Below are positions 1,971 through 63,521 of a DNA stretch of 64,000 nt, one piece after another. How positions within the stretch are numbered: position 1 is the stretch's first letter; every line of letters begins with the position of its first letter. Below the pieces are notes generated by a model, which worked only from the letters and a program-made list of their open reading frames with translations, was not told the DNA's origin and did not search any database. The stretch is from the NCBI GenBank assembly GCA_001464895.1, contig LNEE01000040.1, forward strand, positions 37,415 through 101,414, written 5' to 3'. The position numbers and the translations under genes were made by a program. The DNA is from Betaproteobacteria bacterium Ga0077532. Lineage in GTDB: Bacteria > Pseudomonadota > Gammaproteobacteria > Burkholderiales > Ga0077523.

Positions 1971-1978
1971 TCCGTCGC

Positions 1979-26956: not shown

Positions 26957-27031
26957 GCCCCTGTAGGAGCGGGCCGCGCCCTTGTAGGAGCGGGCCATGC
27001 CCTTGTAGGAGCGGGCCATGCCCGCGAAAGC
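26957..27031. repeat. family-1 REP: three tandem 21-bp half-arms (CCCTTGTAGGAGCGGGCCATG) ending in GCCCGCGAAAGCG
   Basis: Read directly from the sequence. The half-arm starts are about 21 bp apart. No opposing arm is present. Confidence 0.85.
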
Positions 27032-37412: not shown

Positions 37413-37499
37413 GCCGGGATGGCGGAACTGGTAGACGCAGCGGACTCAAAATCCGCCGGTGGAAACATCGTGGGGGTTCGATTCCCCCTCCCGGCACCA
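37413..37499 (+). tRNA. tRNA-Leu, anticodon CAA (37447-37449), encoded CCA
   Basis: Acceptor GCCGGGA/TCCCGGC. Anticodon arm GCGGA-CTCAAAA-TCCGC. Long variable arm. T arm GGGGG-TTCGATT-CCCCC. 3' ACCA. Confidence 0.9.
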
Positions 37500-40610: not shown

Positions 40611-40952
40611 TGCGCGGCTCTCGAATGCCCGCTCAGAACGCCAGCACCGTGTCGACGTCGGCTGTCCGATCTGCCAGGGAGAATCTGATGCGTTCGCTCG
40701 ATCGCGACGGCAAGCCCAAGGACCGATGGCGCGAAGGTCCGGGCCGCCATGTGCGCAACGCACATCAGGACCGCACGCGAATGCGAGTGCCTTCGTCGAC
40801 ATGCAGACATCGAAACTGTCGGCTGACGTCTTGGCGGCGGAACGAAGGATCCGGGCGTCGCGGACAATGCGGTCACCGAGGGAGACTCGAGCCATTGCCA
40901 TGCGTTGCCTCCGCGTGTCGCAGAACAACGGCCGGGCGTTCGCCATGCCACA

Positions 40953-42368
40953 TCACAGCCTCGGCGCCATCGTATGAAACGCTGTCACCCCCTGATACGC
41001 CGCCCCCACCCGGAACAGCTTCGCCTCGTCGAACGGCTTGCCGATGATCTGCATTCCGATCGGCAAACCGTCGGGGTCGAAGCCACACGGCACGTTCAGC
41101 GACGGCAGGCCGGTCAGGCTCGGGACGCCGGTGTACTGCATGATCGCCGAGAGCATGTCCTCCTCGACGCCGTTCTCGATGACGACCTTCATCTCGCCCA
41201 CGCGCGTGGCGGTGAAGGGCAGCGTGGGGCAGAGGAACACGTCGACCTTGCGGAACGCCTCCATGAACTCGTTGCGCAGCAGGGTGCGATAGCGCTGCGC
41301 CTGCAGGTAGTGGGTCGCGAGCAGCATCTCGCCCACCTCGAGGAGCGTGCGCACGTCGGCGCCGTAGTTCTGCGGTTGCTCGCGCAGCCAGCGCTGGTGG
41401 TACGTGCTCGGCTCGGCGGATTCGATCGTGAGCTGCGCCGAGATGTTGCCGTGGATGTTGTCGATGTCGACGTCGACGATCCTCGCGCCGAGGCCCTTCA
41501 ATGTGTCGAGCGCCGACATCACCGCGGCGTGCACCGGCGGCTGCAGATGGTGGAAGAAGTAGCCGGGCACCACGCCGATGCGCAGGCCGTCGATGCCGGC
41601 GCCGAGGTCCGCCAGATAGTCGGACGTCGGGGCGCGCGACGTCGTCGGATCCTTCGGATCGTGACCCGCGATCGCGCCGAACATGAGCGCGCAGTCCTCG
41701 ACGGTTCGGGTCATCGGGCCCGCGGTGTCCATGCTCCACGCGAGCGGGATGATGCCGTGGTTGCTCACGCGTCCATAAGTGGGGCGAATGCCGACGACGC
41801 CGTTGATGGCCGACGGCAGACGGATCGATCCGCCGGTGTCGGTCCCGATGGCGCCGTAGCACATGCGTGCGGCGACCGCGGCGCCGGATCCACCACTGGA
41901 CCCCGCGGGGAATCGATCGGTGTTCCACGGGTTGCGCACGGCGCCGTAGTGCGGGTTGTCGGAGGTGCCGCCCCACGCGAACTCGTGCATGTTCAGCTTG
42001 CCGAGCAGGATCGCGCCGGCGCGGCGGAGACGCTCGGTGACGGTGGCGTCGTGGTCGGGAATCCAGTTCTCCAGCACCTTGCTGCCGGCGGTGGTCCGCG
42101 TGCCGCGTACGGCCACGTTGTCCTTCAGGCTCACCGGCACGCCGTGCAGCGGGCCGAGGTCGTAGCCCGCGCGAAGCATCGTGTCGGCCGCCTTCGCGAC
42201 GCTGCGTGCTTCTTCCGCGAAGACGGTGATGTACGCGGCGAGGCGGCTGTCCACGGCGTCGATGCGCGCGAGGCAGGCGTCGACGAGTTCCAGCGGTGAC
42301 ACCTCGCGCGTGCGGACCAGGCGGGCGGCTTGTGCCAGAGAGAGGTCGAGCAGGTCGGCGGTGCTCAT
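40953..42368 (-). CDS. amidase-signature (GatA/AtzE-like) amidohydrolase
   Basis: ATG follows GGAGGAGGG. PVSLKDN (Lys) and GSSGGSGAAVA (Ser-cisSer). Confidence 0.9.
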   Translation of the reverse strand: MSTADLLDLSLAQAARLVRTREVSPLELVDACLARIDAVDSRLAAYITVFAEEARSVAKAADTMLRAGYDLGPLHGVPVSLKDNVAVRGTRTTAGSKVLENWIPDHDATVTERLRRAGAILLGKLNMHEFAWGGTSDNPHYGAVRNPWNTDRFPAGSSGGSGAAVAARMCYGAIGTDTGGSIRLPSAINGVVGIRPTYGRVSNHGIIPLAWSMDTAGPMTRTVEDCALMFGAIAGHDPKDPTTSRAPTSDYLADLGAGIDGLRIGVVPGYFFHHLQPPVHAAVMSALDTLKGLGARIVDVDIDNIHGNISAQLTIESAEPSTYHQRWLREQPQNYGADVRTLLEVGEMLLATHYLQAQRYRTLLRNEFMEAFRKVDVFLCPTLPFTATRVGEMKVVIENGVEEDMLSAIMQYTGVPSLTGLPSLNVPCGFDPDGLPIGMQIIGKPFDEAKLFRVGAAYQGVTAFHTMAPRL

Positions 42369-42589
42369 GGCTGTCCCTCCTCCGGCTCGACCGGATGCGT
42401 GAAGACGGTGGCAGGCACGAGGGTCATGTATTGCTCGGCGCTCATCTTGCGGCTCAGTTCGTTGGCGTCCAGTACCCACGCCTCGAGGATCGGCGTGACG
42501 ATGGCTTCGCGATCGGCACCGAGCGGCAGTTCCGCGTAGTCGGCGAGCGCTCGTGTCAGGGCAGGGGTGACTTCCTTGCGTTGGGGCAT
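42365..42589 (-). CDS. small AtzG-like/DUF4089 (GatC-like) partner protein
   Basis: 74 aa. GGAGA lies 8 nt upstream of the start. The stop overlaps the amidase ATG (ATGA). The pattern ..YAELPLGADREAIVTPILE.......L......L.PATVF.HP resembles the DUF4089/AtzG family as I recall it. Confidence 0.55.
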   Translation of the reverse strand: MPQRKEVTPALTRALADYAELPLGADREAIVTPILEAWVLDANELSRKMSAEQYMTLVPATVFTHPVEPEEGQP

Positions 42590-42684
42590 CGGGGGATCTC
42601 CGGGGGTGCGCATCGGCGCGGCAATGGGGCCCAGCTGGCTCGGATTATGGCCTCTTCCTGCGCGCGGTCTGCGGGTGGCAAGGG

Positions 42685-43592
42685 CGGTTCTCGGCGCCGG
42701 AGGTGCCAGTCCCGAGGGCCCTTCGTGGGTCGAGTATCGCTCGACGCGGCGATGGCTTGGGCGCAGGGGCGAATCCAGGAGCGCGGGCGTCGGGCGGAGC
42801 CCGACCCACGGGGATTGTTTCCAGAACCGAGGAATCCAGTGGCGAGGCCCTTCGTGGGTCGAGCATCGCTCGACGCTGCGTGGGCTTGGGCGCAGCGGCG
42901 AATCCAGGAACGCGGGCGTCGGGCGGAGCCCGACCCACCGGGGGTGTTTTCAGCGCCGAGGCATCCAATCGCAAAGACCCTTCGTGGGTCGAGCATCGCT
43001 CGACGCGGCGATGGCTTGGGCACGGGGGCGCATCCAGGAACGCAGGCGTCGGGCGGAGCCCGACCCACGGGGATTGTTTCCAGAACCGAGGCATCCAGTG
43101 GCGAGGCCCTTCGTGGGTCGAGCATCGCTCGACGCGGCGATGGCTTGGGCACAGCGGCGAATCCAGGAACGCAGGCGTCGGGCGGAGCCCGACCCACGGG
43201 GATTGTTTCCAGAACCGAGGCATCCAGTGGCGAGGCCCTTCGTGGGTCGAGCTGCGCTCGACGCGGCGATGGCTTGGGCACAGCGGCGCATCCAGGAACG
43301 CAGGCGTCGGGCGGAGCCCGACCCACGGGGGATGTTTCCAGCGCCGCGGCATCCCGTCGCGCAGTCCCTTCGTGGGTCGAGCATCGCTCGACGCGGCGAT
43401 GGCTTGGGCACGGGGGCGCATCCAGGAACGCAGGCGTCGGGCGGAGCCCGACCCACGGGGATGGTTTCCAGAACCGAGGCATCCAGTGGCGAGGCTCTTC
43501 GTGGGTCGAGCATCGCTCGACGCGGCGATGGCTTGGGCACAGCGGCGAATCCAGGAACGCGGGCGTCGGGCGGAGCCCGACCCACGCGGATC
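42685..43592. repeat. family-2 REP/BIME tandem array, 7 units, 129/130-bp period
   Basis: CGTGGGTCGAG starts at 42723, 42852, 42982, 43111, 43240, 43370 and 43499. The units are near-identical. Confidence 0.95.
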
Positions 43593-43651
43593 GTGCGTCA
43601 CGCGCTCGATGAGAGGGCCGCTGGCGTCCGCATTCAGGAAATACGTGATAG

Positions 43652-43667
43652 TTCAGTAATTACTGAA
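43652..43667. promoter_or_regulatory. perfect 16-bp palindrome TTCAGTAATTACTGAA upstream of the regulator gene (candidate operator)
   Basis: Read directly from the sequence, in an AT-rich patch. TATACT (43686-43691) lies 7 nt before the ATG at 43699. Confidence 0.5.
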
Positions 43668-43698
43668 AAGTAAGATTCTCTCGCCTATACTTCCCGCC

Positions 43699-44280
43699 AT
43701 GCCGCTCAACGATCAACTCCCCGCCCTCAACCGCGAGTTCATCGCCCACTTCGGCGAGATGGGCAGCCGCTGGGGCATCAACCGCACCGTCGGCCAGATC
43801 TACGCGCTGCTTTTCCTGTCGCCGAAGCCGCTCTGCGCCGACGAGATCGCCGAGAGCCTCGAGTTCTCACGATCCAACGTGAGCATGGGCCTGAAGGAAT
43901 TGCAGGCGTGGCGGCTCGTTCGTCTGCGTCATGTCCCAGGCGACCGCCGCGAGTACTTCGGCGCCCCTGACGACGTCTGGGAGATCTTTCGCGTGCTGGC
44001 CGAGGAGCGCCGCCGCCGCGAGGTCGAGCCCACGCTGACGATGCTGCGCTCCGCCCTCCAGGAAACCCCCGCCACCGACGACGAGCGTCACGCGCAGGAG
44101 CGCATGCGCCAGATGCACGAGTTCATCAGCCGACTGATGACGTGGTTCGATGAAGTCCAGAAGCTGTCGCCGGAAACCGCAGTGCAGTTGATGAGCATGG
44201 GGTCGATGGTGACCCGCGTGCTCGAAGTGAAGGACCGGCTCACGGGCCGTAATACGAAGAAGCAGAGCAGCACCCCCTGA
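43699..44280 (+). CDS. GbsR/MarR-type winged-helix transcriptional regulator
   Basis: GINRTVGQIYALLFLSPKPLCADEIAESLEFSRSNVSMGLKELQAWRLV is the GbsR-type wHTH pattern. It sits directly upstream of cydAB. Confidence 0.75.
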   Translation: MPLNDQLPALNREFIAHFGEMGSRWGINRTVGQIYALLFLSPKPLCADEIAESLEFSRSNVSMGLKELQAWRLVRLRHVPGDRREYFGAPDDVWEIFRVLAEERRRREVEPTLTMLRSALQETPATDDERHAQERMRQMHEFISRLMTWFDEVQKLSPETAVQLMSMGSMVTRVLEVKDRLTGRNTKKQSSTP

Positions 44281-44299
44281 ACGACAAGGACTTGCCAGC

Positions 44300-45664
44300 A
44301 TGACGCTCGATGCCCTGATGCTCTCGCGCATACAGTTCGCCGCGAACATCAGCTTCCACATCCTCTTCCCGACCATCACGATCGCGCTGTGCTGGTTCCT
44401 GCTGTTCTTCCGCGTCCGGCTCGTGCAGACCCGCGAGCCGGCGTGGGAAGAGGCGTACTACTTCTGGACGAAGGTGTTCGCGCTGACGTTTGCGCTCGGC
44501 GTCGTGTCGGGCATCGTGATGAGCTTCCAGTTCGGTACCAACTGGCCGGGCTTCATAGAGACGACGGGCAACATCTCCGGTCCTCTGCTGGGCTACGAGG
44601 TCCTCACGGCGTTCTTCCTCGAGGCGAGCTTCCTCGGGATCATGCTGTTCGGCCGTGGGCGCGTGTCGGAGCGCGTGCACCTCACGGCGACGTTCCTCGT
44701 CGCGCTCGGCACCACGCTCTCCGCATTCTGGATCCTGAGTCTCAACTCGTGGATGCAGACGCCCGCCGGATTCGAGATCGTCGACGGCAAGTTCATGCCC
44801 ACCGACTGGTTCGCGGTGGTGTTCAACCCGTCGTTCCCGTACCGGTTCGCGCACAAGCTGCTTGCCTCGGCACTCACCGCGGCGTTCCTCATCGCCGGGC
44901 TCAGTGCTTGGCAGTTGCTGAAGGGCACTGCGACCGACGGCACCCACAAGGCCATGCGAGCAGCCGTGTTCACCGCGGCGATCGTGATCCCGATCCAGTT
45001 CGTCGCGGGTGATCTCCACGGCCTCAATACGCTGGAGCACCAGCCCGCGAAGGTCGCCGCGATGGAGGGCATCTGGGAGACCGAGCGCGGCGCGCCCCTC
45101 ACGCTCTTCGGCATCCCCGACGAAGAGACCGGCACGACGCACCTCGCGATCAAGATTCCGAAACTCGCGAGCCTCATCCTCACGCACGAACTCGACGGCG
45201 AGATCGCGGGCATCGACGCGTTCCCGGACGCGCACCCGCCGGTGGCGCCGGTCTTCTACGCGTTCCGGATCATGGTGGGCGTCGGTTCGCTGATGCTCGT
45301 CGTGGCGGCGTTCGCGGCGTGGAAGCTTTGGGGCCAGCGCGGGCGCGCGCGCATCAGCCTGCCCAGGCCCTTGCTCTGGACGCTCTCAGCGATGACCTTC
45401 TCCGGCTGGGTCGCCACGCTGTCCGGCTGGTACGTGACCGAGACCGGCCGACAGCCGTTCGTCGTCTACGGCGTGCTGCGTACGAGCGATGTGGTCACGA
45501 GCGTCCCCTCACCGTTCATCGGCGCCACGCTCGTCGCCTATCTGCTCGTGTACGGCCTGCTTCTCGTCACCTACGTGGGCGTGCTCAAGTACATGGCCGA
45601 GAACCCGGTGACGCATGCGCCGGTGCCGGTCACCGACGCCGGGCTCGGCAAGGCGGGGGTGTGA
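44300..45664 (+). CDS. cydA: cytochrome bd-type ubiquinol oxidase subunit I (short, CIO-like length)
   Basis: LSRIQFAANISFHILFPTITI, GYEVLTAFFLEA, and a polytopic topology. 454 aa. Confidence 0.9.
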   Translation: MTLDALMLSRIQFAANISFHILFPTITIALCWFLLFFRVRLVQTREPAWEEAYYFWTKVFALTFALGVVSGIVMSFQFGTNWPGFIETTGNISGPLLGYEVLTAFFLEASFLGIMLFGRGRVSERVHLTATFLVALGTTLSAFWILSLNSWMQTPAGFEIVDGKFMPTDWFAVVFNPSFPYRFAHKLLASALTAAFLIAGLSAWQLLKGTATDGTHKAMRAAVFTAAIVIPIQFVAGDLHGLNTLEHQPAKVAAMEGIWETERGAPLTLFGIPDEETGTTHLAIKIPKLASLILTHELDGEIAGIDAFPDAHPPVAPVFYAFRIMVGVGSLMLVVAAFAAWKLWGQRGRARISLPRPLLWTLSAMTFSGWVATLSGWYVTETGRQPFVVYGVLRTSDVVTSVPSPFIGATLVAYLLVYGLLLVTYVGVLKYMAENPVTHAPVPVTDAGLGKAGV

Positions 45665-45665
45665 C

Positions 45666-46673
45666 ATGCTGGGCATGACCTGGGCCGAGTGGCTGCCGCT
45701 CATCTTCCTGGCGACGATGGGGTTCGCGCTGCTCGTGTACGTGATCCTCGACGGCTACGACCTCGGCGTCGGCCTGCTGCTGCCGTTCGCGGACGACGCC
45801 GCGAAGGACACCATGATCTCCAGCATCGGCCCCTTCTGGGATGCCAACGAGACCTGGCTCGTGCTCGGTGTGGGGGTGCTGCTCGTGGCGTTCCCGATGG
45901 CGCATGGACTTGTGCTGCAGGCGTTGTACCTGCCCGTGGCCGTGATGCTGATCGGGCTCATCCTCCGCGGCGTCGCGTTCGATTTCCGGGTGAAGGCGCC
46001 ACTCCGCTACAAGCCGTTCTGGAACCGCGCGTTCTTCGCCGGTTCGCTGCTCGCGGGTGCCGCGCAGGGGTGGATGCTCGGAAGCTACATCACGGGCTTC
46101 GACGCGGGGCCGTTCGGCATCGCGTTCAGCCTGGGCATCGCGATCACGCTCCCCGCGGCCTATGTGCTGCTGGGAGCGGGGTGGCTCATCATGAAGACGG
46201 AAGGTCCGCTGCAGATGCAGGCCGTGGCCTGGGCGAAACGTGTGCTGTGGCCCATGGGCGTCGCACTCGTGGCGATCTCCGCGGCCACGCCGCTCGTGCA
46301 CCCCACGGTCGCCGCGAAATGGTTCGGCGTGCCCCAGGTGTTCGCGCTGCTGCCCGTTCCGCTCGCGTGTGCCGTGGCGTTCTTCGCGGTGCGTTGGGTC
46401 CTGACACACCCTGATCTGGTGCGTGCCGGCCATGGCTGGATCGTGTTCGCTGCGACCGTGCTCATCTTCGTGCTGGCGTTCTTCGGCCTCGCGTACAGCA
46501 TCTTCCCGGACATCGTGATCGGCCGGATGACGGTGTGGGAGGCGGCCATCAGCACCGCATCGCTCAACGTCGTGTTCGTGGGCGTGGCCATCACGCTGCC
46601 GGTGATCGTTGCCTACACGGTGTTCATGTATCGGGTGTTCTGGGGCAAGGCGCGGGCGCTGACGTACGGGTGA
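45666..46673 (+). CDS. cydB: cytochrome bd-type ubiquinol oxidase subunit II
   Basis: ATG lies 1 nt after the cydA stop. YVILDGYDLGVG and FWDANETW. Confidence 0.9.
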   Translation: MLGMTWAEWLPLIFLATMGFALLVYVILDGYDLGVGLLLPFADDAAKDTMISSIGPFWDANETWLVLGVGVLLVAFPMAHGLVLQALYLPVAVMLIGLILRGVAFDFRVKAPLRYKPFWNRAFFAGSLLAGAAQGWMLGSYITGFDAGPFGIAFSLGIAITLPAAYVLLGAGWLIMKTEGPLQMQAVAWAKRVLWPMGVALVAISAATPLVHPTVAAKWFGVPQVFALLPVPLACAVAFFAVRWVLTHPDLVRAGHGWIVFAATVLIFVLAFFGLAYSIFPDIVIGRMTVWEAAISTASLNVVFVGVAITLPVIVAYTVFMYRVFWGKARALTYG

Positions 46674-46727
46674 CGGGTGCAGGCGCGAAGCGCCTCGTTC
46701 TCGATCTCCGGCGGAGGATGCACCCCC

Positions 46728-46840
46728 TTGTAGGAGCGGCCCATGGCCGCGAAAGCGATGGTTCCGGGTGAAGCGTTTCCTTGCATCTACCGCTCTCGAG
46801 GGCGTGGCCCGCTCCTACAGGGGCCATGGGCTCCTCGTAC
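46728..46840. repeat. family-1 REP inverted pair plus a partial extra arm
   Basis: TTGTAGGAGCGGCCCATGGCCGCGAAAGCG ... spacer ... GGCCCGCTCCTACAG, then GGGCCATGGGCTCCTCGTAC. Confidence 0.85.
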
Positions 46841-47003
46841 GGGAACCTACGCTTCGTTTCCCGCGGTCAGCGCGATTCCATGGCTGTGCATTCCGATGGG
46901 GTTGTCCGCGATTCACTTCGCCGGGCATGATGCCCATGGCCGTTCCGAACGCCACGTCGGGACGGCTTCCTCCCGCCGCCGCCCACTGCTGACCGTGATC
47001 CCC

Positions 47004-48047
47004 ATGAAGAGCACCCTCCGCGCCGGTCTTCGCCATGCCCCTTGTGGCGGCTTCCGCGCGACGTCCGCCCGGTGGGCCGCCGCGGCCCTCCTCGCGGCGG
47101 CATCGATCGGCCCCGCGCCGGCGGCCAATCGTCCCGAACCCGAGTCGGTGGATTTCTACGTCGTGGGCGGGGCACTGCGCGGCCTTGGCGAGAACACCTG
47201 GACTGCGCAAACCGGGTTCATCTACAGCCCGACGACCACGCCCTGGGGCATCGGCTTCGTGTACACGAACGACGGCCACCTCACCAACAATCACCGCGAC
47301 GGTTTCGCATTGCAGGGCTGGTATGCATGGGACCTCTCCGATCGCCTCGAACTTCAGGCGGGCATGGGGCCGTACGCGAACATGAACAACACCACCCTGA
47401 ACCGCGGGCGAGAGAACAGGTTCCGCGTCGGTCTGTTCACGACGGTCGCCCTGAAATGGCACCCGTTCGAATCCGGCTGGTACCTGCGGTCCCAGCTCAC
47501 CAATACGCTGGTGCCCGGTTCGTTCAACTCCAATGCCATCCTCTTCGGCGCCGGGTACGACTTCATCTCCACCTCGGACATCGAGCGGCCGACCCGGCTG
47601 AAGGCCGACCTCAGCGTCTGGAGCGGCGCATCGCGGACGACGCAGCTCGGGGCGCAGCAGACGAGTGGCGCGGTGCAGATCGAGGCGCAGTACATACTCG
47701 ACCAGCCGTCGGCATGGTGGCAGCCTGCGGCCTATTCGGTGGCGTTTCTGTCGGAAGGCGACACCGGCTTGATCCATCGCCGCGGCTTCCCCCTCCAGGC
47801 GTGGTGGCGGACCCCGCCGGACACCTTCACTTTCAGTTTCGGCCTGGGACCGTACATCGCCTACGACACCTATCGCGAGACACCGCTGACCGCGATGGGC
47901 ATCCTCAGCATCCGCGCGGCTTACAAGGTGCTCGACATGCCTTCGAGTTCCATCGAGGCGGCGTTCATGTACACGCGCGTCGCGTCGTTCTACCACAGGG
48001 ACCAGGACATCTTCATGCTGGGGGTACGCCTGAACGCCAAGCGCTGA
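47004..48047 (+). CDS. hypothetical outer-membrane beta-barrel-like protein with an internal duplication
   Basis: An Ala-rich signal-like N-terminus, alternating aromatic/polar strands, and a C-terminal ..IFMLGVRLNAKR. HRDGFALQGWY/LQAGMGPYANMN in the first half repeat as HRRGFPLQAWW/FSFGLGPYIAYD in the second. Confidence 0.6.
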   Translation: MKSTLRAGLRHAPCGGFRATSARWAAAALLAAASIGPAPAANRPEPESVDFYVVGGALRGLGENTWTAQTGFIYSPTTTPWGIGFVYTNDGHLTNNHRDGFALQGWYAWDLSDRLELQAGMGPYANMNNTTLNRGRENRFRVGLFTTVALKWHPFESGWYLRSQLTNTLVPGSFNSNAILFGAGYDFISTSDIERPTRLKADLSVWSGASRTTQLGAQQTSGAVQIEAQYILDQPSAWWQPAAYSVAFLSEGDTGLIHRRGFPLQAWWRTPPDTFTFSFGLGPYIAYDTYRETPLTAMGILSIRAAYKVLDMPSSSIEAAFMYTRVASFYHRDQDIFMLGVRLNAKR

Positions 48048-48143
48048 GCGGGCTGCGCGGCGCCGCGGGTTCCATGCCATCATTTCGCCTCCCGCCTCGG
48101 CACCGCCGCGCGGCGATACCCAACAAGATCGAGGGAGACCGTC

Positions 48144-48569
48144 TTGGCAGTTCTCGTGGAAGCAATGTCGCTCGTCGTCCGGTTGGACGCGATCAACGAA
48201 GAGTACGTCGGTGGCCTCGAAGCCTTCATCGCCGGGATCCACAGCGCGTCGGTGTGCATGGACGGCGAACTGCTCCGCGTCGGGTTCCTGAGCCTCGCCG
48301 AGGCCGATGCGAACATCCACCGTCTCGAAGAGGGCGGCCTGCAGTACCTCCAGGACGGCGCCCCGCGCGACATGATCCTGGTGGACCAGCTCCGTGGCCC
48401 GAGTGCGCCGTGCGACTGGCTGGAGGTGGGCGAAGTGCAGATCGGGCCCGGCCAGAGCGTCATGGCGGCGCGCCTGGTGGACACCAAGGTCGGAACGCTT
48501 TTCACGCCGGAGGGCTGGCGATTCGAGCATTCGCATTCGAAGGCGCTGGGGTTGGGGGGGCGGCAATAG
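48144..48569 (+). CDS. hypothetical protein
   Basis: TTG start lies 5 nt after GAGGGAGA. 141 aa with normal composition. No family recognised. Confidence 0.45.
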   Translation: MAVLVEAMSLVVRLDAINEEYVGGLEAFIAGIHSASVCMDGELLRVGFLSLAEADANIHRLEEGGLQYLQDGAPRDMILVDQLRGPSAPCDWLEVGEVQIGPGQSVMAARLVDTKVGTLFTPEGWRFEHSHSKALGLGGRQ

Positions 48570-48570
48570 G

Positions 48571-48985
48571 GGGGCGAAAGCGGCGGTTCCGGGTGGAGCG
48601 CTTCCTCGCATCCACCGCTTTCGGGGCCATGGGCCTCTCCTACAGAACCCGTCGACGCGCCACCGATGGTGATTGTGACCTTGTAGGAGCGGGCCATGCC
48701 CGCGAAAGCGCCGGTTCCGGGTGAAGCGTTTCCTTGCATCGACCGCTTTCGGGGCCATGGGCCCCTCCTACAGAACCCGTTGATGCGCCACCGATGGTGG
48801 TTGTGAAATTGTAGGAGCTGGCCATGCCCGCGAAAGCGATGGTTCCGGGTGGAGTGCTTCCTTGCATTCCTCGCTTTCGGGGCCATGGGCCCCTCCTACA
48901 GAGCCCGGTTGATGCGCCACCGATGGTGGTTGTGACCTTGTAGGAGCGGGCCATGGCCGCGAAAGCGTCGGTTTCGGTCGACGCA
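48571..48985. repeat. family-1 REP tandem array: about 3.5 copies of a ~128-bp module (arm, spacer, inverted arm, linker)
   Basis: TTGTAGGAGC starts at 48681, 48809 and 48938, with a partial module from 48571. Arm: GTAGGAGCGGGCCATGCCCGCGAAAGCG. Linker: GAACCCGTTGATGCGCCACCGATGGTGGTTGTGA. Confidence 0.9.
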
Positions 48986-48990: not shown

Positions 48991-50088
48991 CTACAACCCC
49001 AACGGATCCCGCCCCTCCCGCAGCCCGCCCACTGCAGCCTCCAGCCGCGCCAGGGTCGTCTCCCGCAACGCCTTCCCGTTGCTCCCCGCCCCGACCAGGA
49101 AGAACGCGCTGTCGTGGTCGAAGTACCCCGCGCCCACGCGGATCACCGCCTTGAAGATCATGTTGCGCAGCAGGTGCAGCCAGAAGCGCGGGACGTGTTC
49201 GGCGGGTAGCGCGCGGACCGAGGCGTAGCCCTCGAACGCGGCTCGCAGGAACGCGCCGTCGTGGAAGCATCCCAGCAGCGCGAGATCGTCCATCGCATCG
49301 CCGCCGACGCAGTCGTCCCAGTCGATCACCGCCGTGACCTCATGCTCGGTTCCGAGCAGATTCCACAGTGCCGTGTCCTTGTGGACGAGGCACGGTGTGG
49401 CGAGGTCGAGGAGGGCGCGGTGGTCGTCGATCGCGGTGCGCATCGCCTCGGCTTGTGACGGCGTGAGGAAGCGGCGTTCGACGAGAAAGGTGAGGTGCGC
49501 GTCGAGGCGCGTGAAGTAGTACGACGGATACGTCGCGTGCAGGCCGTGCAGCACGCCGTCCGTCGCCAGACGCTGCACGTCGAACGGTCCGAACCCTTCC
49601 ACCGGTACGTCCTGCCACGTCGCGATCAGCCGACCGATCTGCGCCGCGACTTCGACGGTGGCCAGCGTGCCGGCCTTGAAGTGTCGATTCAGATCCGGTT
49701 CCGCGACGCGTTCGAGGATCTGCCACGCGAACGGCGCGACGCTCCGCGCGGCGTCAGTGGCGTACACGCGCGGCGTCGGAACGCCGAGCGCCCGCACGCG
49801 ATCCATCACGAACGACTCGACCGCGATGTAGTCGTCCTGCTCCGGGCCGTCCTCGATGCGGACGAAGACGTCGTGCGCATCGACGGTCGCGATGAAAGTG
49901 AGGTGGTTGCCCTGGCCGCCGCCATCGCGCAGGGTGGTCGGCGGCGCGCCGAAGTGACGCGTCAGGAGATCGCGGACGAGGGATGCCGTCTCCTGGCTCG
50001 GCCGTCGCGCATCGCCCTGGGTGGTGCCGTGGAAGGCGGCCAGGCGATCGCATTTCCAGTAGTAGATGTCGCGGCGGGTGGACGGCAT
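48991..50088 (-). CDS. aminoglycoside-phosphotransferase/choline-kinase-family (APH-like) kinase
   Basis: LVHKDTALWNLL (HxDxxxxN catalytic loop) and VIDWDDC (DxD). The start is taken at the ATG at 50088. The upstream extension runs into repeat DNA. Confidence 0.75.
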   Translation of the reverse strand: MPSTRRDIYYWKCDRLAAFHGTTQGDARRPSQETASLVRDLLTRHFGAPPTTLRDGGGQGNHLTFIATVDAHDVFVRIEDGPEQDDYIAVESFVMDRVRALGVPTPRVYATDAARSVAPFAWQILERVAEPDLNRHFKAGTLATVEVAAQIGRLIATWQDVPVEGFGPFDVQRLATDGVLHGLHATYPSYYFTRLDAHLTFLVERRFLTPSQAEAMRTAIDDHRALLDLATPCLVHKDTALWNLLGTEHEVTAVIDWDDCVGGDAMDDLALLGCFHDGAFLRAAFEGYASVRALPAEHVPRFWLHLLRNMIFKAVIRVGAGYFDHDSAFFLVGAGSNGKALRETTLARLEAAVGGLREGRDPLGL

Positions 50089-50160
50089 GGGGCGCGGCGG
50101 GACAGGTGGATGGTGGTGCCGCATGGTGCCGGAGGCGGGGGCGTCTGTGCAGCGCCGTCT

Positions 50161-50388
50161 CTCGTGGGTCGAGCCATCGCTCGACGCGGCGATGGCGAAC
50201 GGCGACGTGGTCACGGGATGCGCCGCGTCGGGCTGCAGCCCGACCCACGGGGGTTGTTTTCGGCATCCCCGCGCGTGGCGCTGGTCTACGGTGTTCGTGG
50301 GTCGAGCTACAGCTCGACGCGGCGAGTGCGAACGGCGCCGTGGTCGCGGGATGCGCCGCGTCGGGCTGCAGCCCGACCCACGGGGGGT
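50161..50388. repeat. family-2 REP/BIME, 2 units (~133-bp period)
   Basis: CGTGGGTCGAGC at 50163 and 50296. Each is followed by GTCGGGCTGCAGCCCGACCCACGG. Confidence 0.9.
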
Positions 50389-50437
50389 GTTCTCGGCATC
50401 CCCGTGCGCTGGAATGGTCGACGGTGTTCGCTCTACG

Positions 50438-51901
50438 TCAGCTCCCCGTCCCGTTCGGATCCCGCCATACCCGCTCGAACGGCAGCCGCCACGCGTGTGG
50501 CGCGATCAACTGGTGGATCGACTTCGGCCCCCACGAACCCGGGGCATACAACCGCACCGGCGGCGGCGCTTCGAGCAGCTGGGTCGACACCTGCCACAGG
50601 CGCTCGATGCCGTCGGCCGTGTTGAACAGCGTGTGATCGCCGCGCATCGCGTCGAGGATCAGGCGTTCGTACGCCTCGAGCACCTCACCGATCAACCCCG
50701 TGTCGTGCATCGCGAACTGCAGGCTCAGCTTGTCGAGGCGCATGCCCGGGCCGGGGCGCTTGCCGTAGAAGGAGAGCGACATCTTCGAGGCGTCGGCGAG
50801 GTCGAACGTGAGGTGGTCGGGGCCCTGCGCGCCCACGCCGGAGCCGGGCGGGAACATGCTCTTCGGCGGCTCGCGGAAAGCGATGGAGATGATCCGCTGG
50901 CCCTCCGCCATGCGCTTGCCCGTGCGCAGGAAGAACGGCACCCCGGCCCAGCGCCAGTTGTCGATGTAGCACTTCAGCGCGATCAGCGTCTCGGTGTCGG
51001 ACTCCGGGTCGACGCCATCCTCCGCGCGATAGCCGGTGTACTGCCCGCGCACGACGTCGGTGGGCAGGATCGGCAGCATGCTGCGGAAGACCTTGTTCTT
51101 CTCCTCGCTGATGGGCGCGGGCTCCAGCGCGGTGGGCGGCTCCATCGCCATGAAGGCGAGGATCTGGAAGAGGTGCGTGACCACCATGTCGCGGTAAGCG
51201 CCGGTCTGCTCGTAGAACCCGGCGCGCGTGCCGAGGCCGAGCGTCTCCGGCACGTCGATCTGCACGTGGTCGATGAAGTTGCGGTTCCAGATCGGTTCGA
51301 ACAGCCCGTTCGCGAAGCGGAACGCGAGGATGTTCTGCGCGGGCTCCTTCCCGAGGAAGTGGTCGATGCGGAAGATCTGGTCCTCCGTGAAAACGTCGTG
51401 CAGCTTCGCGTTCAGCGAGACGGCCGACGCGAGGTCGGTGCCGAAGGGCTTCTCCATGACGATGCGGGCGCGGTCCACGAGGCCCGCCTCGCTGATCATC
51501 CGCACCGCGGCGAGGGCGGCGTTCGGCGGCACGCTGAGGTAATGCAGCCGGCGGCTCTCGCCTTCGAAGGTCTGCTCGGCGGTTTCGACGGCGGTTCGCA
51601 GCGCCTCCGGACCGGAACCGAGGGGCACGTAGTCCAGGCTCCGCGCGAAGGCCTCCCAGTCGCGGTCCGTGACCTTGCGATTGAAGAACTCGTTGAGCGA
51701 AGCCCGGGCGATCTTCCGAAAGCCATCGGCATCGATGTCGTCGAGCGAGACGCCGATGATCCGGCAGCCGGGGATGAAGCCGGCGCTGACCAGGTGATAC
51801 AGCCCCGGCAGCAGCTTGCGCCGGGAGAGATCGCCGGTGGCACCGAACAGCACCACCACCTGCGGAAAGCGCGGACCAACCCCTGGGGGAACCTTCGCCA
51901 C
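50438..51901 (-). CDS. zwf: glucose-6-phosphate 1-dehydrogenase
   Basis: GTG at 51901 lies 6 nt after [25 protein letters not shown] (NADP site) and RIDHFLGKE (active site). The ATG at 51937 is an alternative start. Confidence 0.9.
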
Positions 51902-51978
51902 GGCGGATCTCCTGTGCGGGATGCGGGGAGCGTGCATCGGTGGCGAGGGCGGCGCAACATCCGTACCGGTGGGTTTCC

Positions 51979-52109
51979 CTTGTAGGAGCGCGCCATGCCC
52001 GCGAAATCGTGGTTTCCGGGTGGAGCGCTTCCTTGCATCGACCGCTTTCGGGGCCATGGGCCCCTCCTACAAGGGCATGGCCCGCTCCTACAAGGGCATG
52101 GTCCGCTCC
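51979..52109. repeat. family-1 REP inverted pair with a tandemly duplicated right half-arm
   Basis: CTTGTAGGAGCGCGCCATGCCCGCGAAATCG ... CGCTTTCGGGGCCATGGGCCCCTCCTACAAGGGCATGGCCCGCTCCTACAAGGGCATGGTCCGCTCC. Confidence 0.9.
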
Positions 52110-52265
52110 GGCGACGGCCCCACCCGCACCGCCGGGGTGCGCGCCGCCCATGGGCGCACCGGGCATTTGCCGGCACAATCGCGGCCTTCCGCTCCATGCC
52201 CCGACCCATGAACGACCGCCACGACATCGCTGCCCGCGCATCGACGCCTCCCGGAGGCGCCTGAC

Positions 52266-53105
52266 TTGTCCGACCGTCTGGCCGTGCTGCCGCAATACCT
52301 CCTGCCCAAGCGCGCGATCACCGGGTTCGCCGGTTGGTGCGCCAACTCCCGGTCGAAGGCCTGGACGCGCCGGGTGATCCCCTGGTTCATCGCGCGCTAT
52401 GGCGTGAACATGGCCGAGGCCGAGAATCCGGATCCGATGGCGTACGAAACCTTCAACGCGTTCTTCACGCGGGCGCTGCGGCACGATGCGCGACCGCTGG
52501 CCGCGGGGCCGTTCGTGTGCCCGGTGGATGGCGCCATCAGCCAGTGCGGTGCCATCGTGGGCGATCAGCTGTTGCAGGCGAAGGGGCACACCTACAGCGT
52601 CCGGGCGATGGTGGGTGGGGATGCCGCGCTGGCGGCGCAGTTCGTCGACGGCCAGTTCGCGACGCTCTACCTGAGCCCGAAGGACTACCACCGCATCCAC
52701 ATGCCCTGCGACGGTCGTCTGGTGCGGATGATCCACGTGCCCGGCGATCTCTTCTCGGTGAACCCGACCACGGCCCGCGGCGTGCCCGGTCTCTTCGCGC
52801 GGAACGAGCGCGTGGTGTGCGAGTTCGACTCCGACCACGGCACCTTCGTACTCGCCCTCGTGGGCGCCACCATCGTCGGTAGCATGGCGACGGCGTGGCA
52901 CGGACTGGTGAATCCGCCGCGTCCGGGCACCGTGCGCGAGTGGCGCTACGACGGCCGCGACATCGCGCTGCGCAAGGGTGAGGAGATGGGGCGCTTCCTG
53001 CTCGGGTCCACGGTCGTGATGCTGTTCCGGAAGGGCACGCTGCAGTTTCCCGCCGACTGGGTGGCGGCGCGCGACATTCGCATGGGCGAGGCCATGGTTC
53101 GGTAG
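52266..53105 (+). CDS. psd: phosphatidylserine decarboxylase proenzyme
   Basis: TTG start. LPQYLLPKRAITGFAGW, DYHRIHMP, and the LGST self-cleavage motif (FLLGSTVV). Confidence 0.9.
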   Translation: MSDRLAVLPQYLLPKRAITGFAGWCANSRSKAWTRRVIPWFIARYGVNMAEAENPDPMAYETFNAFFTRALRHDARPLAAGPFVCPVDGAISQCGAIVGDQLLQAKGHTYSVRAMVGGDAALAAQFVDGQFATLYLSPKDYHRIHMPCDGRLVRMIHVPGDLFSVNPTTARGVPGLFARNERVVCEFDSDHGTFVLALVGATIVGSMATAWHGLVNPPRPGTVREWRYDGRDIALRKGEEMGRFLLGSTVVMLFRKGTLQFPADWVAARDIRMGEAMVR

Positions 53106-53197
53106 TTCAGCGGTGCCGCGGTACCGTGCGGTGGCGTACATATCGCCGCGCGCCCTCGGCGCAGACTCGGCTCTGCAACATCACAGGAGCCTCGAGA

Positions 53198-53509
53198 ATG
53201 AACACACGCACCGTCATCATCGCTGCAGCACTTGCTGCCGCACTCGTCACGTCCGGCTGCGCCGTCCAGCGCGGCCAGCAGACCGTCGGCGGCTACGTCG
53301 ACGATTCGGCCATCACCGCGCAGGTCAAGAGCAGCTTCGTCGGCAACAAGGACGTCGGCGCGGCCAGCATCAGCGTCGAGACCCTCGAAGGGAAGGTGAT
53401 GCTGTCGGGCTTCGCGAAGAACGAAGCCGAGAAGGCGGCTGCCGGCCGACTCGCGATGAGCGCGAAGGGCGTGAAGTCGGTGGAGAACCAGATCATCGTC
53501 CAGCCCTGA
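53198..53509 (+). CDS. BON-domain (OsmY-like) lipoprotein
   Basis: ATG follows CAGGAG. Lipobox VTSGC. BON pattern: DDSAITAQVKSSF ... ISVETLEGKVMLSGFA ... GVKSVENQI. Confidence 0.8.
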   Translation: MNTRTVIIAAALAAALVTSGCAVQRGQQTVGGYVDDSAITAQVKSSFVGNKDVGAASISVETLEGKVMLSGFAKNEAEKAAAGRLAMSAKGVKSVENQIIVQP

Positions 53510-53542
53510 TCCCCGCCCGGCATCGCCCGCACGTCGCGGGGG

Positions 53543-55495
53543 ATGTCGGGGCTGCGCTACCATCCGGCCCCACAACAACGTAGCCGCGCGCAGGCCGCCA
53601 TCGAGCCCGCCGCGGGGGAGCCGGGGGGAGTCTTGGTTCGAAACGAAGCAGTACCGGATGCGGGTCCGGTCCGGAGGCTGTCCACGTTCGTCGACAGCCT
53701 GGTAGGTGGGCTCGTCGAGGGTCTCGTGGCGCTCCTCATCCTGGCCGAGGTCGTGATCCTCTTCACGGGGGTCGTCTCGCGCTACGTGTTCGAGGAGCCC
53801 ATCGTCTGGTGCGACGAGCTGGCGTCGATCCTGTTCCTGTGGCTCGCGATGCTCGGCTCGGTGGTGGCGCTGCGGCGTGACGAGCACATGCGCATGACCG
53901 CCGTGGTCGGCATGGTGCGCCCGAAGGTCCGCGCGTTCCTCGACATGTTCGCCGTCGCGGCGGCGCTCGCGTTCCTCTTCCTGTTCATCGGCCCCGCGTA
54001 CGAGTTCGCCCACGACGAGATCCCCATCTCGACCCCCGCGCTCGACATCTCCAACGCCTGGCGGGCCGCGGCGCTGCCCATCGGCGGGGCGCTGATGATC
54101 CTCGTGGCGCTGCTGCGATTGCTCAGGACGGCGAGTGCGCCGCTCGCCATCGCCGCCTTCGCGGTCGTCGCCGCGCTGGCCGGTGCGCTGATCGCGATCA
54201 GCCCGCTGCTGCAGGACCTCGGCAACCTCAACCTGCTCATCTTCTTCGTCGGCGTCGTGTCGGTGAACGTCTTCGCCGGTGTGCCCATCGCGTTCTCGTT
54301 CGGGCTCGCCACCGTCGGTTATCTGGCACTGACCACGAGCACGCCGATGCCCGTCGTCGTCGGCCGCATGGACGAGGGCATGTCGCATCTGATCCTGCTG
54401 TCGGTGCCGCTCTTCGTGTTCCTCGGCCTGCTGATCGAGATGACCGGCATGGCGCGCGCGATGGTGGCGTTCCTCGGCAACCTGCTCGGACACGTGCGCG
54501 GCGGGTTGTCGTACGTGCTCGTCGGATCGATGTACCTGGTGTCCGGCATCTCCGGGTCGAAGGCGGCCGACATGGCGGCAGTGGCACCGGTGCTCTTCCC
54601 GGGGATGCAGGCGCGCGGTGCCAAGAAGGGCGAGCTGGTCGCACTCCTCGCGGCCACGGGCGCCCAGACGGAGACGATCCCGCCCAGCCTCGTGCTGATC
54701 ACGATCGGGTCCGTCACCGGCGTGTCGATCGCCGCGCTCTTCACGGGCGGCCTGCTCCCGGCCGTCGTGCTCGGCCTCGCGCTGTGCGTCCTCGTGTGGT
54801 TCCGCTACCGCCACGAGGATCTCTCCGGCGTCCGGCGCGCGACACGCGGCGACATCGTCCGAAGCCTCGTCATCGCATTGCCGGCGATCGCGCTTCCGTT
54901 CGTGATCCGCACGGCGGTGGTGAAGGGCGTGGCGACGGCAACCGAGGTGTCGACGATCGGCATCGTCTACGCCGTCCTCGCCGGCCTGCTCATCTACCGG
55001 TGCTTCCCCTGGCGACGCCTCGTGCCGATGCTCGTCGAGACCGCGGCGCTGTCGGGCGCGATCCTGCTCATCATCGGCGCGGCGACGGGCATGGCCTGGT
55101 CGCTCACGCAGTCCGGCTTCTCGGAGGACCTCACGCGACTCATGGCGAACCTGCCCGGCGGGCGGGCCGGATTCCTCGCCGTGTCGATCGTCGTCTTCAT
55201 CGTCCTGGGCAGCGTGCTGGAGGGTATCCCCGCCATCGTGCTCTTCGGGCCACTGCTGTTCCCCATCGCGCGGGAAATGGGTGTCCACGACGTCCACTAC
55301 GCGATGGTTGTGATCCTCGCGATGGGCATCGGGCTCTTCGCTCCGCCGTTCGGCGTTGGCTACTATGCCGCGTGCGCCGTCGGTCGAGTGCCGCCGGACG
55401 AGGGCATCCGGCCGATCGTGGGGTACCTCGTGGCACTGGTGATCGGCTTGATCGTGGTCGCCTGCGTGCCCTGGATTTCCATCGGGTTCCTGTGA
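53543..55495 (+). CDS. TRAP transporter fused small+large permease (DctQ-DctM); start uncertain (53543 ATG or 53633 TTG after GGGGGGA)
   Basis: The N-terminal DctQ-like region VVILFTGVVSRYVFEEPIVWCDELASILF is followed by a DctM-like polytopic domain of about 430 aa. Confidence 0.85.
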   Translation: MSGLRYHPAPQQRSRAQAAIEPAAGEPGGVLVRNEAVPDAGPVRRLSTFVDSLVGGLVEGLVALLILAEVVILFTGVVSRYVFEEPIVWCDELASILFLWLAMLGSVVALRRDEHMRMTAVVGMVRPKVRAFLDMFAVAAALAFLFLFIGPAYEFAHDEIPISTPALDISNAWRAAALPIGGALMILVALLRLLRTASAPLAIAAFAVVAALAGALIAISPLLQDLGNLNLLIFFVGVVSVNVFAGVPIAFSFGLATVGYLALTTSTPMPVVVGRMDEGMSHLILLSVPLFVFLGLLIEMTGMARAMVAFLGNLLGHVRGGLSYVLVGSMYLVSGISGSKAADMAAVAPVLFPGMQARGAKKGELVALLAATGAQTETIPPSLVLITIGSVTGVSIAALFTGGLLPAVVLGLALCVLVWFRYRHEDLSGVRRATRGDIVRSLVIALPAIALPFVIRTAVVKGVATATEVSTIGIVYAVLAGLLIYRCFPWRRLVPMLVETAALSGAILLIIGAATGMAWSLTQSGFSEDLTRLMANLPGGRAGFLAVSIVVFIVLGSVLEGIPAIVLFGPLLFPIAREMGVHDVHYAMVVILAMGIGLFAPPFGVGYYAACAVGRVPPDEGIRPIVGYLVALVIGLIVVACVPWISIGFL

Positions 55496-55562
55496 CCCGG
55501 ACCAACTGAATCGTGACCGAGCGGCGCAGCACGCACGGCACTTGCGGAGGAGAGAAAACCCC

Positions 55563-56579
55563 ATGTCGATGATCAGCAGACGCGGATTCGTGCGGGGCGC
55601 CGCACTGGCAACGATGGGCGCGCTGGGCGGGCTGCCGATGCGCGCGGGTGCTGCCGAGTTCACCTGGAAGCTGGCGAACAACCTGCCGGTGACGCACCCC
55701 ACCAACGTCCGGATGCAGGAGGCCGCCGCGAAGATCCTCGAGGAGACCGGCGGCAAGGTGGAGATCCGGATCTTCCCGAACAACCAGCTGGGTGGCGACA
55801 CCGACATGCTCTCGCAGCTGCGCTCCGGCGGGATCCAGATGTTCACGCTGTCGGGGAACATCCTCTCGACGCTGTCGAAGCCGACCTCGCTGTGCGGCGT
55901 CGGCTACGCATTTCCCGACTACAAGCGCGTGTGGGAGGCCGTCGACGGTGATCTCGGACGGCATCTGCGCGGGATCATCGGCAAGCTCGGCCTGCACTCG
56001 CTCGACAAGATGTGGGACAACGGCTTCCGGCAGATCACCAGCGGCACGCATCCAATCAACACGCCGGAGGACCTCAAGGGCTTCAAGATCCGCGTGCCGG
56101 TGAGCCCGCAGTGGACCTCGCTCTTCAAGGCGCTCGGGTCCTCGCCCACCTCGATCAACTTCAACGAGGTGTACTCGGCGCTGCAGACGAAGATCGTCGA
56201 CGGGCAGGAGAACGCCATCCAGCTCATCGAGATCGCGAAGCTCTACGAGGTGCAGAAGTACGTCTCGATCACGAACCACATGTGGGACGGCTGGTTCTTC
56301 CTCGTGAACGGTCGTGCGTGGGCCAAGCTTCCGCCGAACCTCCAGGAGATCGTCGCCCGCCAGTTCGACGCTGCGGCCCTGCGGCAGCGCGACGACCTCG
56401 TGAAGCTCAACGTGACGGCGGAAGAGAAGCTGCGGAAGGCCGGTCTCGTGTTCAACCGGACCGACCCGGCGAAGTTCCGCGCCGTGCTGTCGTCCGCCGG
56501 GTACTACAAGGACTGGAAGGCGATCTACGGGCCCGAGGCCTGGGCGCTGCTCGAGAAGTACTCGGGCCCGCTCGCCTGA
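55563..56579 (+). CDS. TRAP transporter substrate-binding protein (DctP family)
   Basis: Tat-like signal MSMISRRGFVRGAALA. DctP-family patterns FPNNQLGGD and GFRQITS...IN.PEDLKG.KIRV. Confidence 0.9.
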   Translation: MSMISRRGFVRGAALATMGALGGLPMRAGAAEFTWKLANNLPVTHPTNVRMQEAAAKILEETGGKVEIRIFPNNQLGGDTDMLSQLRSGGIQMFTLSGNILSTLSKPTSLCGVGYAFPDYKRVWEAVDGDLGRHLRGIIGKLGLHSLDKMWDNGFRQITSGTHPINTPEDLKGFKIRVPVSPQWTSLFKALGSSPTSINFNEVYSALQTKIVDGQENAIQLIEIAKLYEVQKYVSITNHMWDGWFFLVNGRAWAKLPPNLQEIVARQFDAAALRQRDDLVKLNVTAEEKLRKAGLVFNRTDPAKFRAVLSSAGYYKDWKAIYGPEAWALLEKYSGPLA

Positions 56580-56610
56580 CATCCGCCATCGAAAGACACG
56601 AGGAAGCACC

Positions 56611-63225: not shown

Positions 63226-63521
63226 CACGTGGTTAGCGGCATCGCGCCCGTGGCGTTGAGGGGCGAGATGCGCGTGCAGCCTCCAGTGCGACGGCTTCCG
63301 AGGGGCAGCTTGCCGGGTGCCCGACCGTCGTTGTGCTCGATTATGGGGTGCCACGCCCGTTTGCGGGGCGTCCAGTGACCAATGCATAACGAGTCGGTGG
63401 ACGGAAGCGATTGAAATCCCGCGGGTTCTGCCGGTGGGTCTCCGGCTGGCGCCATGGCTCCGGATTTGCAGTGTCGGGACTGCCGCCAACGGCGTGCCCC
63501 GACCCAGGAACCGAAGTCGCC

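Follow-up and report, generated by a model that had tools for sequence, protein, structure and literature searches.

A tandem array of inverted REP doublets in an amidase/cydAB spacer, very probably a BIME-2-like member of a lineage-specific REP family

In Escherichia coli, repetitive extragenic palindromes (REPs) of two inverse types, together with a short linker and flanking motifs, make up the tandem copies of bacterial interspersed mosaic elements of the BIME-2 kind; their copy number varies by locus and strain, and copies at the same locus are well conserved (PMC3333891). The E. coli transposase TnpA-REP needs an unpaired base in the REP stem (PMC3333891). In Pseudomonas fluorescens SBW25, most REP doublets forming hairpins (REPINs) are singlets; 16 ordered tandem clusters, of four REPINs at most, are present, and each gene for a REP-associated tyrosine transposase (RAYT) has clusters next to it (PMC3116915). 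Di Nocera et al. (2013) described degenerate tags, including GTGG, and large clusters of tandemly reiterated dimers (PMC3733652). Here we analysed a stretch of 64,000 nucleotides from contig LNEE01000040.1 of Betaproteobacteria bacterium Ga0077532, hereafter the window, in which a tandem array of seven units of 129/130 bp (42685–43592) lies between an amidase operon and an operon of a regulator and cydAB. Very probably, the array is non-coding and BIME-2-like, its REP doublets (REPIN-like units) being those of a lineage-specific REP family. It is a new instance of selfish or domesticated DNA as already well known from bacteria, and represents no new class of element.

Anatomy of the amidase/cydAB array

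Tandem Repeats Finder (TRF), run on the window, reported a repeat at 42717–43591 with a period of 129 (6.8 copies, 90% matches, score 1438), and the array span also scored at periods of 259 and 388 (the latter with 2.3 copies and 94% matches). The motif CGTGGGTCGAG starts at 42724, 42853, 42983, 43112, 43241, 43371 and 43500, with start-to-start spacings of 129, 130, 129, 129, 130 and 129. An earlier note, made from the letters of the window, had described a seven-unit 129/130-bp array of paired inverted REPs, which TRF and the motif positions bore out; its unit positions and spacings also held, with each start placed one base early by inclusion of the preceding T. Every unit leads from REP-A through a 39-nt core to an inverted REP-B and a linker of 42–43 nt, a four-part layout already recognised in that note, with lengths (approximately 45 nt for the core and 35 nt for the linker) that were slightly off.

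The REP arms are 24 nt long (CGTGGGTCGAGCATCGCTCGACGC and GCGTCGGGCGGAGCCCGACCCACG; the minus-strand form of REP-B is CGTGGGTCGGGCTCCGCCCGACGC). Arms of REP-A and REP-B are 83% complementary and are separated by 39 nt within a unit and by 42–43 nt between units. In each REP, a perfect 7-bp palindrome encloses a loop of 3–4 nt, and the 5′ tag is GTGG, a degenerate form of the GTAG tag. The two subtypes, A (GTCGAGC/GCTCGAC) and B (GTCGGGC/GCCCGAC), alternate and are inverted relative to each other; all 22 window REPs conformed to this, with the A (GAGC) subtype confined to one strand and the B (GGGC) subtype to the opposite strand. A relaxed REP pattern gave 22 matches in the window against 0.00 expected (100 shuffles), all within three arrays, which hold 12 units of the family in total.

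The units, all read on the plus strand, differ in small details. A linker-like segment (42685–42722) stands upstream of the first REP-A as an extra copy of the inter-unit linker, which is unusual in the family: its local alignment to the linker consensus scored 17, where most arrays scored 5–9. Unit 1 (42723–42851) consists of a REP-A with the variant GAGT (42724–42747), the core, REP-B (42787–42810) and a linker of type a. Unit 2 (42852–42981; 130 bp) has REP-A at 42853–42876, REP-B at 42916–42938 and a linker of type b, and holds a TCA triplet at 42950. Unit 3 (42982–43110; REP-A 42983–43006, REP-B 43046–43069, linker a) carries a core variant, CACGGGGGCGCATCC, also found in unit 6 (43370–43498; REP-A 43371–43394, REP-B 43434–43457, linker a), and these two units are 98% identical. 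Between them lie unit 4 (43111–43239; REP-A 43112–43135, REP-B 43175–43198, linker a) and the 130-bp unit 5 (43240–43369; REP-A 43241–43264 with the loop variant TGC, REP-B 43304–43327, linker b). The terminal unit 7 (43499–43592; REP-A 43500–43523, REP-B 43563–43586) lacks a trailing linker, and the array stops just past its REP-B, like most arrays of the family.

Along the array, the linker types follow the order a-b-a-a-b-a. This order and the variant shared by units 3 and 6 had been read correctly before, and a duplication of a three-unit block of about 388 bp had been proposed from them. The duplication is plausible in view of the 388-bp periodicity and the identities of unit 3 with unit 6 (0.98) and of unit 1 with unit 4 (0.95), but it is not clean, since units 2 and 5 share an identity of just 0.87. 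Therefore, either the three-unit duplication was not recent or conversion occurred.

Distribution of the family and of its transposase

We scanned 185,579 species representatives, one genome per species, for the exact doublet pattern (REP-A, 30–50 nt and the start of REP-B). The pattern occurred in 58 stretches of one genome only, the metagenome-assembled genome (MAG) 'Burkholderiales bacterium Bin_40_2', a relative syntenic with the window: positions 40947–48848, 49166–57173, 1–5276 and 61730–64000 of the window align to consecutive blocks of MAG contig JALHMS010000002.1 with 87–95% nucleotide identity. A profile hidden Markov model (HMM) of the unit, applied with nhmmer to the 58 MAG blocks, recovered 376 units (approximately 750 REPs) in 68 arrays on 25 contigs. 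Apart from one singleton, these arrays comprised 2–12 units, and since many of them lie at contig ends, the true number is larger. More than 90% of the 376 units carried the 5′ GTGG tag, and about five REP-like matches were found outside arrays in approximately 520 kb. By our own arithmetic, the MAG contigs bearing the family total 3.7 Mb, of which it occupies 1.3% or more. In a metagenome collection, the same doublet pattern occurred in 54 stretches, all from one whole-genome shotgun (WGS) set (LNFM01), whose loci contained 262 units in 68 arrays of 1–9 units (6 of the 68 being single units); long synteny of these loci with the window was not found. The family is therefore abundant and restricted to a narrow lineage, and the genome-wide copies suggested by the earlier note are found in the syntenic relative, where all 68 arrays are intergenic.

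All arrays of the MAG and the window sit between open reading frames (ORFs) supported by the GC content of third codon positions (GC3) and are thus extragenic. According to crude GC3-based gene calls, the neighbouring genes are convergent at 19 MAG arrays, co-oriented at 22 and divergent at 5; the amidase/cydAB array belongs to the minority in divergent spacers. Many arrays begin or finish within 30 nt of a stop codon. Placement of this kind is usual for REPs. At the co-oriented pairs among MAG loci L003–L060, arrays (oriented with REP-A first) ran opposite to the genes in 16 cases and along them in 6, a weak bias that depends on the same crude gene calls. The two further arrays of the family in the window had both been noticed before and were confirmed. 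The second (24759–25105, plus strand) has three units with a period of 131 and a truncated last REP-B, and is located between convergent genes, 19 nt past the stop codon of a plus-strand gene. The third (50162–50430, plus strand) consists of two units with a period of 133 and a diverged core, and has a two-unit orthologue at locus L046 (997–1232).

A tblastn search of the fetched DNA with E. coli RayT (from NC_000913.3) returned one match, in MAG block L035. The ORF concerned (L035 3175–3627, minus strand) matched the NCBIfam equivalog NF047646 REP_Tyr_transpos (116.9 bits, cutoff 80, E 6e-34) as well as Pfam Y1_Tnp, and aligned to PDB 4er8, the structure of E. coli TnpA-REP, including the HUH (HVH) and YI..NP motifs. 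On its upstream side, the gene is flanked by two family units plus a REP-A and, beginning approximately 20 nt past its stop codon, by four units plus a REP-A, in both cases in the gene's own orientation. Orthologues with 85–91% identity were present in other metagenomes (loci L062 and L064–L067). They share one site, between the genes for gamma-glutamyltranspeptidase and patatin, and are flanked by 6+6 or 3+2 units, the short contigs ending in units on both sides. In total, a RAYT gene with family arrays on both sides was seen on five independent contigs (the MAG and four others); the earlier note had suggested looking for such a gene. This arrangement makes up a REPtron as known from E. coli (PMC3333891) and corresponds to the REPIN clusters beside the RAYTs of SBW25 (PMC3116915). 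By extension from the relatives, the genome of the window probably encodes a RAYT too. No RAYT was detected in the fetched LNFM01 loci. A RAYT with 63% identity occurs in Lysobacter sp. A289, followed by an array of six 110-bp repeats of paired GTAGGTCGGG...CCCGAC REPs in two subtypes. RAYT-like Y1 transposase genes with 58–62% identity to the REPtron RAYT were also observed at loci L069 and L070 (3001–3447 in both), one from a Gallionella MAG and one from a contig assembled from SRR10388253. Both genes are embedded in type I restriction-modification operons, where they separate hsdS from hsdR with tight intergenic gaps, and no flanking REP arrays were found at either locus.

Turnover, origin and rival explanations

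The amidase/cydAB spacer holds seven units in the window, five in the MAG (L043 1869–2483) and four in a metagenome contig (L001). Window units are 85–98% identical to each other and mostly 82–90% identical to those of L043, with flanks of approximately 89–90% identity. Since the window and its MAG orthologue differ in unit number and identity, the arrays were therefore resized and homogenised separately in each lineage. In L001, which stems from an activated-carbon metagenome and has flanks 99.9% identical to those of the window, the array (5413–5896, corresponding to window 42723–43594) consists of units 1, 2, a hybrid of 3 and 6, and 7, exactly 388 bp fewer. A second contig (L002, 1–372; 100% identical) breaks inside the array, with units 5–7 present; both contigs stem from assemblies of a single metagenome project. 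Eleven MAG contigs begin or end in arrays, and the family is a systematic cause of collapse and fragmentation in short-read assemblies.

The ends of the arrays follow a common rule. Of 49 complete arrays, 40 open with a unit that begins at HMM positions 1–6, at the foot of REP-A and preceded by TT, and most arrays finish at HMM positions 83–96, just past REP-B plus GGGG. Partial linkers at the ends, sought as a test for circular junctions, were not found in most arrays: similarity to the linker faded to background within about 2 nt on the 5′ side and 5 nt on the 3′ side. The exceptions, with an extra leading linker, are the amidase/cydAB array and its MAG orthologue (alignment score 22 at L043). 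Matches to the consensus were 0.91 for REP-A, 0.84 for the core, 0.92 for REP-B and 0.68 for the linker; identities between arrays were 0.90, 0.76, 0.91 and 0.72, respectively, and units inside one array shared 0.90 overall. The linker is thus internal only, yet its conservation between loci is near that of the core. Because it is internal and nevertheless conserved genome-wide, new loci probably arose from pieces comprising two units or more, or from circles of one period that were later amplified, in keeping with the models of excision and amplification by TnpA-REP (PMC3333891); single doublets acquiring local flanks would not be expected to produce this pattern.

By analogy with E. coli TnpA-REP, we propose that the RAYT would bind REP hairpins on single-stranded DNA and cleave and rejoin the DNA beside them, and that this activity could seed new loci and add units. 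Unequal recombination or slippage would then expand, contract and homogenise each array, for which the three-unit repeat of approximately 388 bp may serve as an example. The amidase/cydAB array is most likely a passenger in the spacer between two divergent promoters, each of which keeps its proximal 100–130 bp or so. An effect on the host at this site, such as the gyrase binding, supercoil insulation or mRNA-end protection reported for E. coli REPs and BIMEs, is speculative.

Several observations weigh against the interpretation as a RAYT-mobilised BIME-2-like array. Mobility of the units is deduced from their sequences. No RAYT was found in the 64-kb window by tblastn with either the E. coli RayT or the MAG RAYT. 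The GTGG tag and the stems without a mismatch mean that the recognition rules of the RAYT, if it is active, must differ from those in E. coli. Singleton doublets are nearly absent (1 of 68 MAG arrays and 6 of 68 LNFM01 arrays), unlike in REPIN populations, whose replicative unit is the dispersed doublet, and none of the three window arrays is a single unit, so that the dispersed single doublet is not the predominant form here; this census covered 8-kb blocks with an exact match, and decayed or solitary copies elsewhere would escape it. Finally, the four-unit form in L001 may be an allele that predates the duplication or followed a deletion, or may have arisen when the assembly of short reads merged units 3 and 6, which are 98% identical.

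The scarcity of solitary doublets, together with arrays that run from REP-A foot to REP-B foot and a linker conserved over approximately 70 loci, led us to consider an 'array-only' REP-RAYT system, in which not the single doublet but the entire period of 130 bp, or a piece of several units, would propagate. We put this forward tentatively, as a possibility that we do not favour. Models of BIME amplification by rolling circles or one-period circles (Nunvar et al., Ton-Hoang et al.) predict such a pattern (PMC3333891). The tight period of approximately 130 bp might reflect a host constraint, for instance the length of DNA wrapped by gyrase.

An origin in host function is an unlikely alternative to the BIME-2-like, RAYT-derived array. 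It would make the arrays structural or cis-regulatory elements selected by the host, existing because of gyrase or nucleoid-protein binding, supercoil insulation of divergent operons, or protection or termination at mRNA 3′ ends, and not because of RAYT activity. The array was retained at the amidase/cydAB spacer in two species with flanks of approximately 89% identity, many arrays at convergent pairs adjoin stop codons on either side, and binding of gyrase, IHF and Pol I as well as effects on mRNA stability and termination have been reported for E. coli REPs and BIMEs (PMC3333891). The period is also tightly confined (129 in 89 cases, 130 in 141 and 131 in 53), and arrays of an unrelated second REP family have periods of about 125–157 bp. 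However, copy number varies freely at the locus (seven, five or four), core and linker drift to a similar degree between arrays without covariation, a scan found no terminator-like sites in the array, and a host function is compatible with a RAYT origin rather than exclusive of it. We regard it as more improbable still that the arrays are a RAYT-independent minisatellite, generated only by slippage, unequal crossing-over and segmental duplication, with the RAYT merely residing in a repeat-rich spot. The greater similarity of units within arrays than between them would suit such an origin, as would the higher-order 388-bp periodicity and the near lack of dispersed single doublets, but slippage alone cannot disperse one 130-bp consensus over approximately 70 separate intergenic loci. 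Moreover, the unit is composed of REPs of the tagged-palindrome type, and the flanking of the RAYT by the family on both sides in five independent contigs is the arrangement that defines a REPtron (PMC3333891).

The remaining alternatives concern RNA and protein products. That each unit is a gene for a structured RNA with a hairpin of about 90 nt, in tandem, is very improbable. Units do fold better than shuffled sequences on both strands (RNA z −4.4 to −5.2), and the A-core-B segment forms a long hairpin of the REPIN kind (−54.2 kcal/mol, z = −4.8) despite a fixed A·C mismatch. However, folding was equally good on the two strands and in the two registers, A-core-B and B-linker-A (z −3.0 to −5.2), as expected of inverted DNA repeats, since alternating inverted repeats yield such folding for free. 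The earlier note had envisaged closure of a unit into a structure of about 95 nt or, instead, two local hairpins; the local hairpins are perfect, whereas the closed form carries the A·C mismatch at position 5 in 319 of 376 units. The local 7-bp palindromes hardly vary, and position 5 is the only polymorphic position of the REP-B stem (G-C in 325 units, A-T in 25, and 2 intermediates). It is the palindromes of the individual REPs that are kept, as in the E. coli y and z types, and not the 90-nt closed structure. At the gathering threshold, Rfam gave a single tRNA elsewhere in the window and no family in the array; at E ≤ 10, the region 42400–43800 gave only sub-threshold matches to generic miRNA-precursor hairpins (best 22.8 bits against a cutoff of 74 bits). 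RNAalifold on the 12 in-window units returned a covariation term of +0.25, the predicted core pairs of 361 unique units varied without compensation, and the array contains no promoter-like site. The Rfam result and the lack of covariation beyond the REP palindromes thus rule out a known or structured RNA. What emerged is largely what the earlier note had called ordinary REP DNA, with an intergenic distribution of the ordinary REP/BIME type. A protein-coding repeat, in which one of the ORFs is real, is effectively refuted. The region is open in all six frames, with ORFs of 211–438 aa as reported earlier, because it holds just one stop-type triplet (TAA, TAG, TGA, TTA, CTA or TCA), the TCA at 42950, which terminates the 211-aa minus-strand ORF; the array had been described as stop-free, which is nearly right. 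However, the periods (129/130 here, 129–131 family-wide) keep no reading frame, a Pfam scan of the six array ORFs gave nothing above cutoff, and the flanking real genes possess their own starts; coding is ruled out by the periods and the Pfam result, in agreement with the earlier reading of the array as non-coding. Avoidance of stop codons was rejected as a family property, since stop-type triplets averaged 1.86 per unit across the 376 units and only 47 of these were stop-free (against 4.4% of 129-mers drawn at random from the window); the stop-free unit described before is nearly accurate for the amidase/cydAB array only. A clustered regularly interspaced short palindromic repeat (CRISPR) array was likewise rejected, as both inter-REP segments are repeated and conserved genome-wide and the REPs alternate in orientation.

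Genomic setting and comparison with known systems

The array makes up 908 of the 1109 bp that separate the ATG of a 74-aa ORF (42589) from the start of the regulator gene (43699) and so fills most of the divergent gap, as had been stated. On the left, a minus-strand operon opens with the 74-aa ORF (42365–42589; no Pfam match) and continues with the amidase gene (40953–42368) and then with methyltransferase genes. On the right, a gene for a GbsR/MarR-family regulator (43699–44280, plus strand) precedes cydA (44300–45664) and cydB (45666–46673). Outside the array, approximately 130 bp remain next to the amidase operon and 107 bp next to the regulator gene. A scan for promoters and terminators found no sites within the array, and the sole promoter-like site precedes the regulator gene (43663–43691), where it overlaps a perfect 16-nt palindrome, TTCAGTAATTACTGAA (43652–43667). 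The palindrome, which the MAG orthologue (L043) partly retains, probably acts as the operator of the regulator itself.

Other features of the window were observed in passing. The 74-aa ORF and a 434-aa ORF downstream of cydB (46743–48047) are conserved proteins without a Pfam match, and both were called as genes in metagenome contigs. The segment 37413–39008, annotated from the gene calls of the identical contig L001, contains a tRNA gene (37413–37496), an N-terminal integrase fragment (Arm-DNA-bind_3) and a PhdYeFM/PIN toxin-antitoxin pair; it resembles the remnant of a tRNA-integrated island beside the methyltransferase/amidase operon. A second REP family, unrelated in sequence and GTAG-tagged (GTAGGAGCGGGCCATG...), likewise forms paired inverted copies and tandem arrays. 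In the window it occurs at 48574–48977 (three units of 128 bp), 26957–27023 and 52055–52109, and in the MAG in blocks L009, L024, L026, L029, L043, L053, L058 and L060, with periods of 125–157 bp. It is curious that one genome should contain two REP families whose periods are both near 130 bp; no RAYT for the second family was seen.

The family adds a betaproteobacterial REP-RAYT system in which nearly all copies stand in tandem arrays with a conserved inter-unit linker. Such a system could help to discriminate between competing models of RAYT-driven BIME amplification and, if the array-only possibility were true, the lineage would offer a natural setting in which to test them. Recognition of the family also has practical value: its arrays generate long spurious ORFs in six frames that might be mistaken for genes, and they break short-read assemblies, which explains contig breaks including the one inside the amidase/cydAB array.

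Among described systems, the family shares with E. coli BIME-2 (composed of y and z2 REPs) the strict alternation of two inverted REP subtypes with two kinds of spacer in turn, as well as tandem, multicopy and extragenic occurrence, a copy number that varies between loci and genomes, and conservation of copies at the same locus. The Y1/HUH transposase gene flanked by the same repeats corresponds to the E. coli REPtron, in which tnpA-REP/rayT is flanked by BIMEs. In contrast to the E. coli y and z REPs, the family has an unrelated sequence, the tag GTGG instead of GTAG, and perfect 7-bp palindromic stems without an unpaired base. Its long spacers (39 and 42 nt) are conserved throughout the genome, unlike the linkers of E. 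coli BIME-2, which vary in length and sequence. Nearly all of its copies are in arrays, while E. coli also possesses BIME-1 and many single REPs.

With the REPINs of SBW25 (Bertels & Rainey 2011), the units have in common that inverted REP doublets are able to form a long hairpin, that clusters lie beside the cognate RAYT, and that the RAYT occupies a conserved chromosomal site. They differ in that 67 of 68 arrays have at least two units, and up to 12, in that the inter-unit linker follows a family-wide consensus, whereas repeated flanks in SBW25 were described as part of each cluster, and in the fixed A·C mismatch of the long hairpin. The tagged palindrome with a 7-bp stem, and its dimers with outward-facing tags that are tandemly reiterated, place the family close to the GTAG-tagged REP superfamily (Di Nocera et al. 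2013), unlike which the exact doublet is confined to one species-level lineage among genomes and one WGS set among metagenomes. The GTAGGTCGGG...CCCGAC REPs of Lysobacter sp. A289 have the same GTCGGG/CCCGAC stem as REP-B and the same array layout beside a RAYT, but the unit measures 110 bp there and 130 bp here, and the spacers are unrelated. Overall, the differences from known systems are quantitative, consisting of near-exclusive arrays of up to 12 units, long conserved spacers, perfect stems and the GTGG tag.

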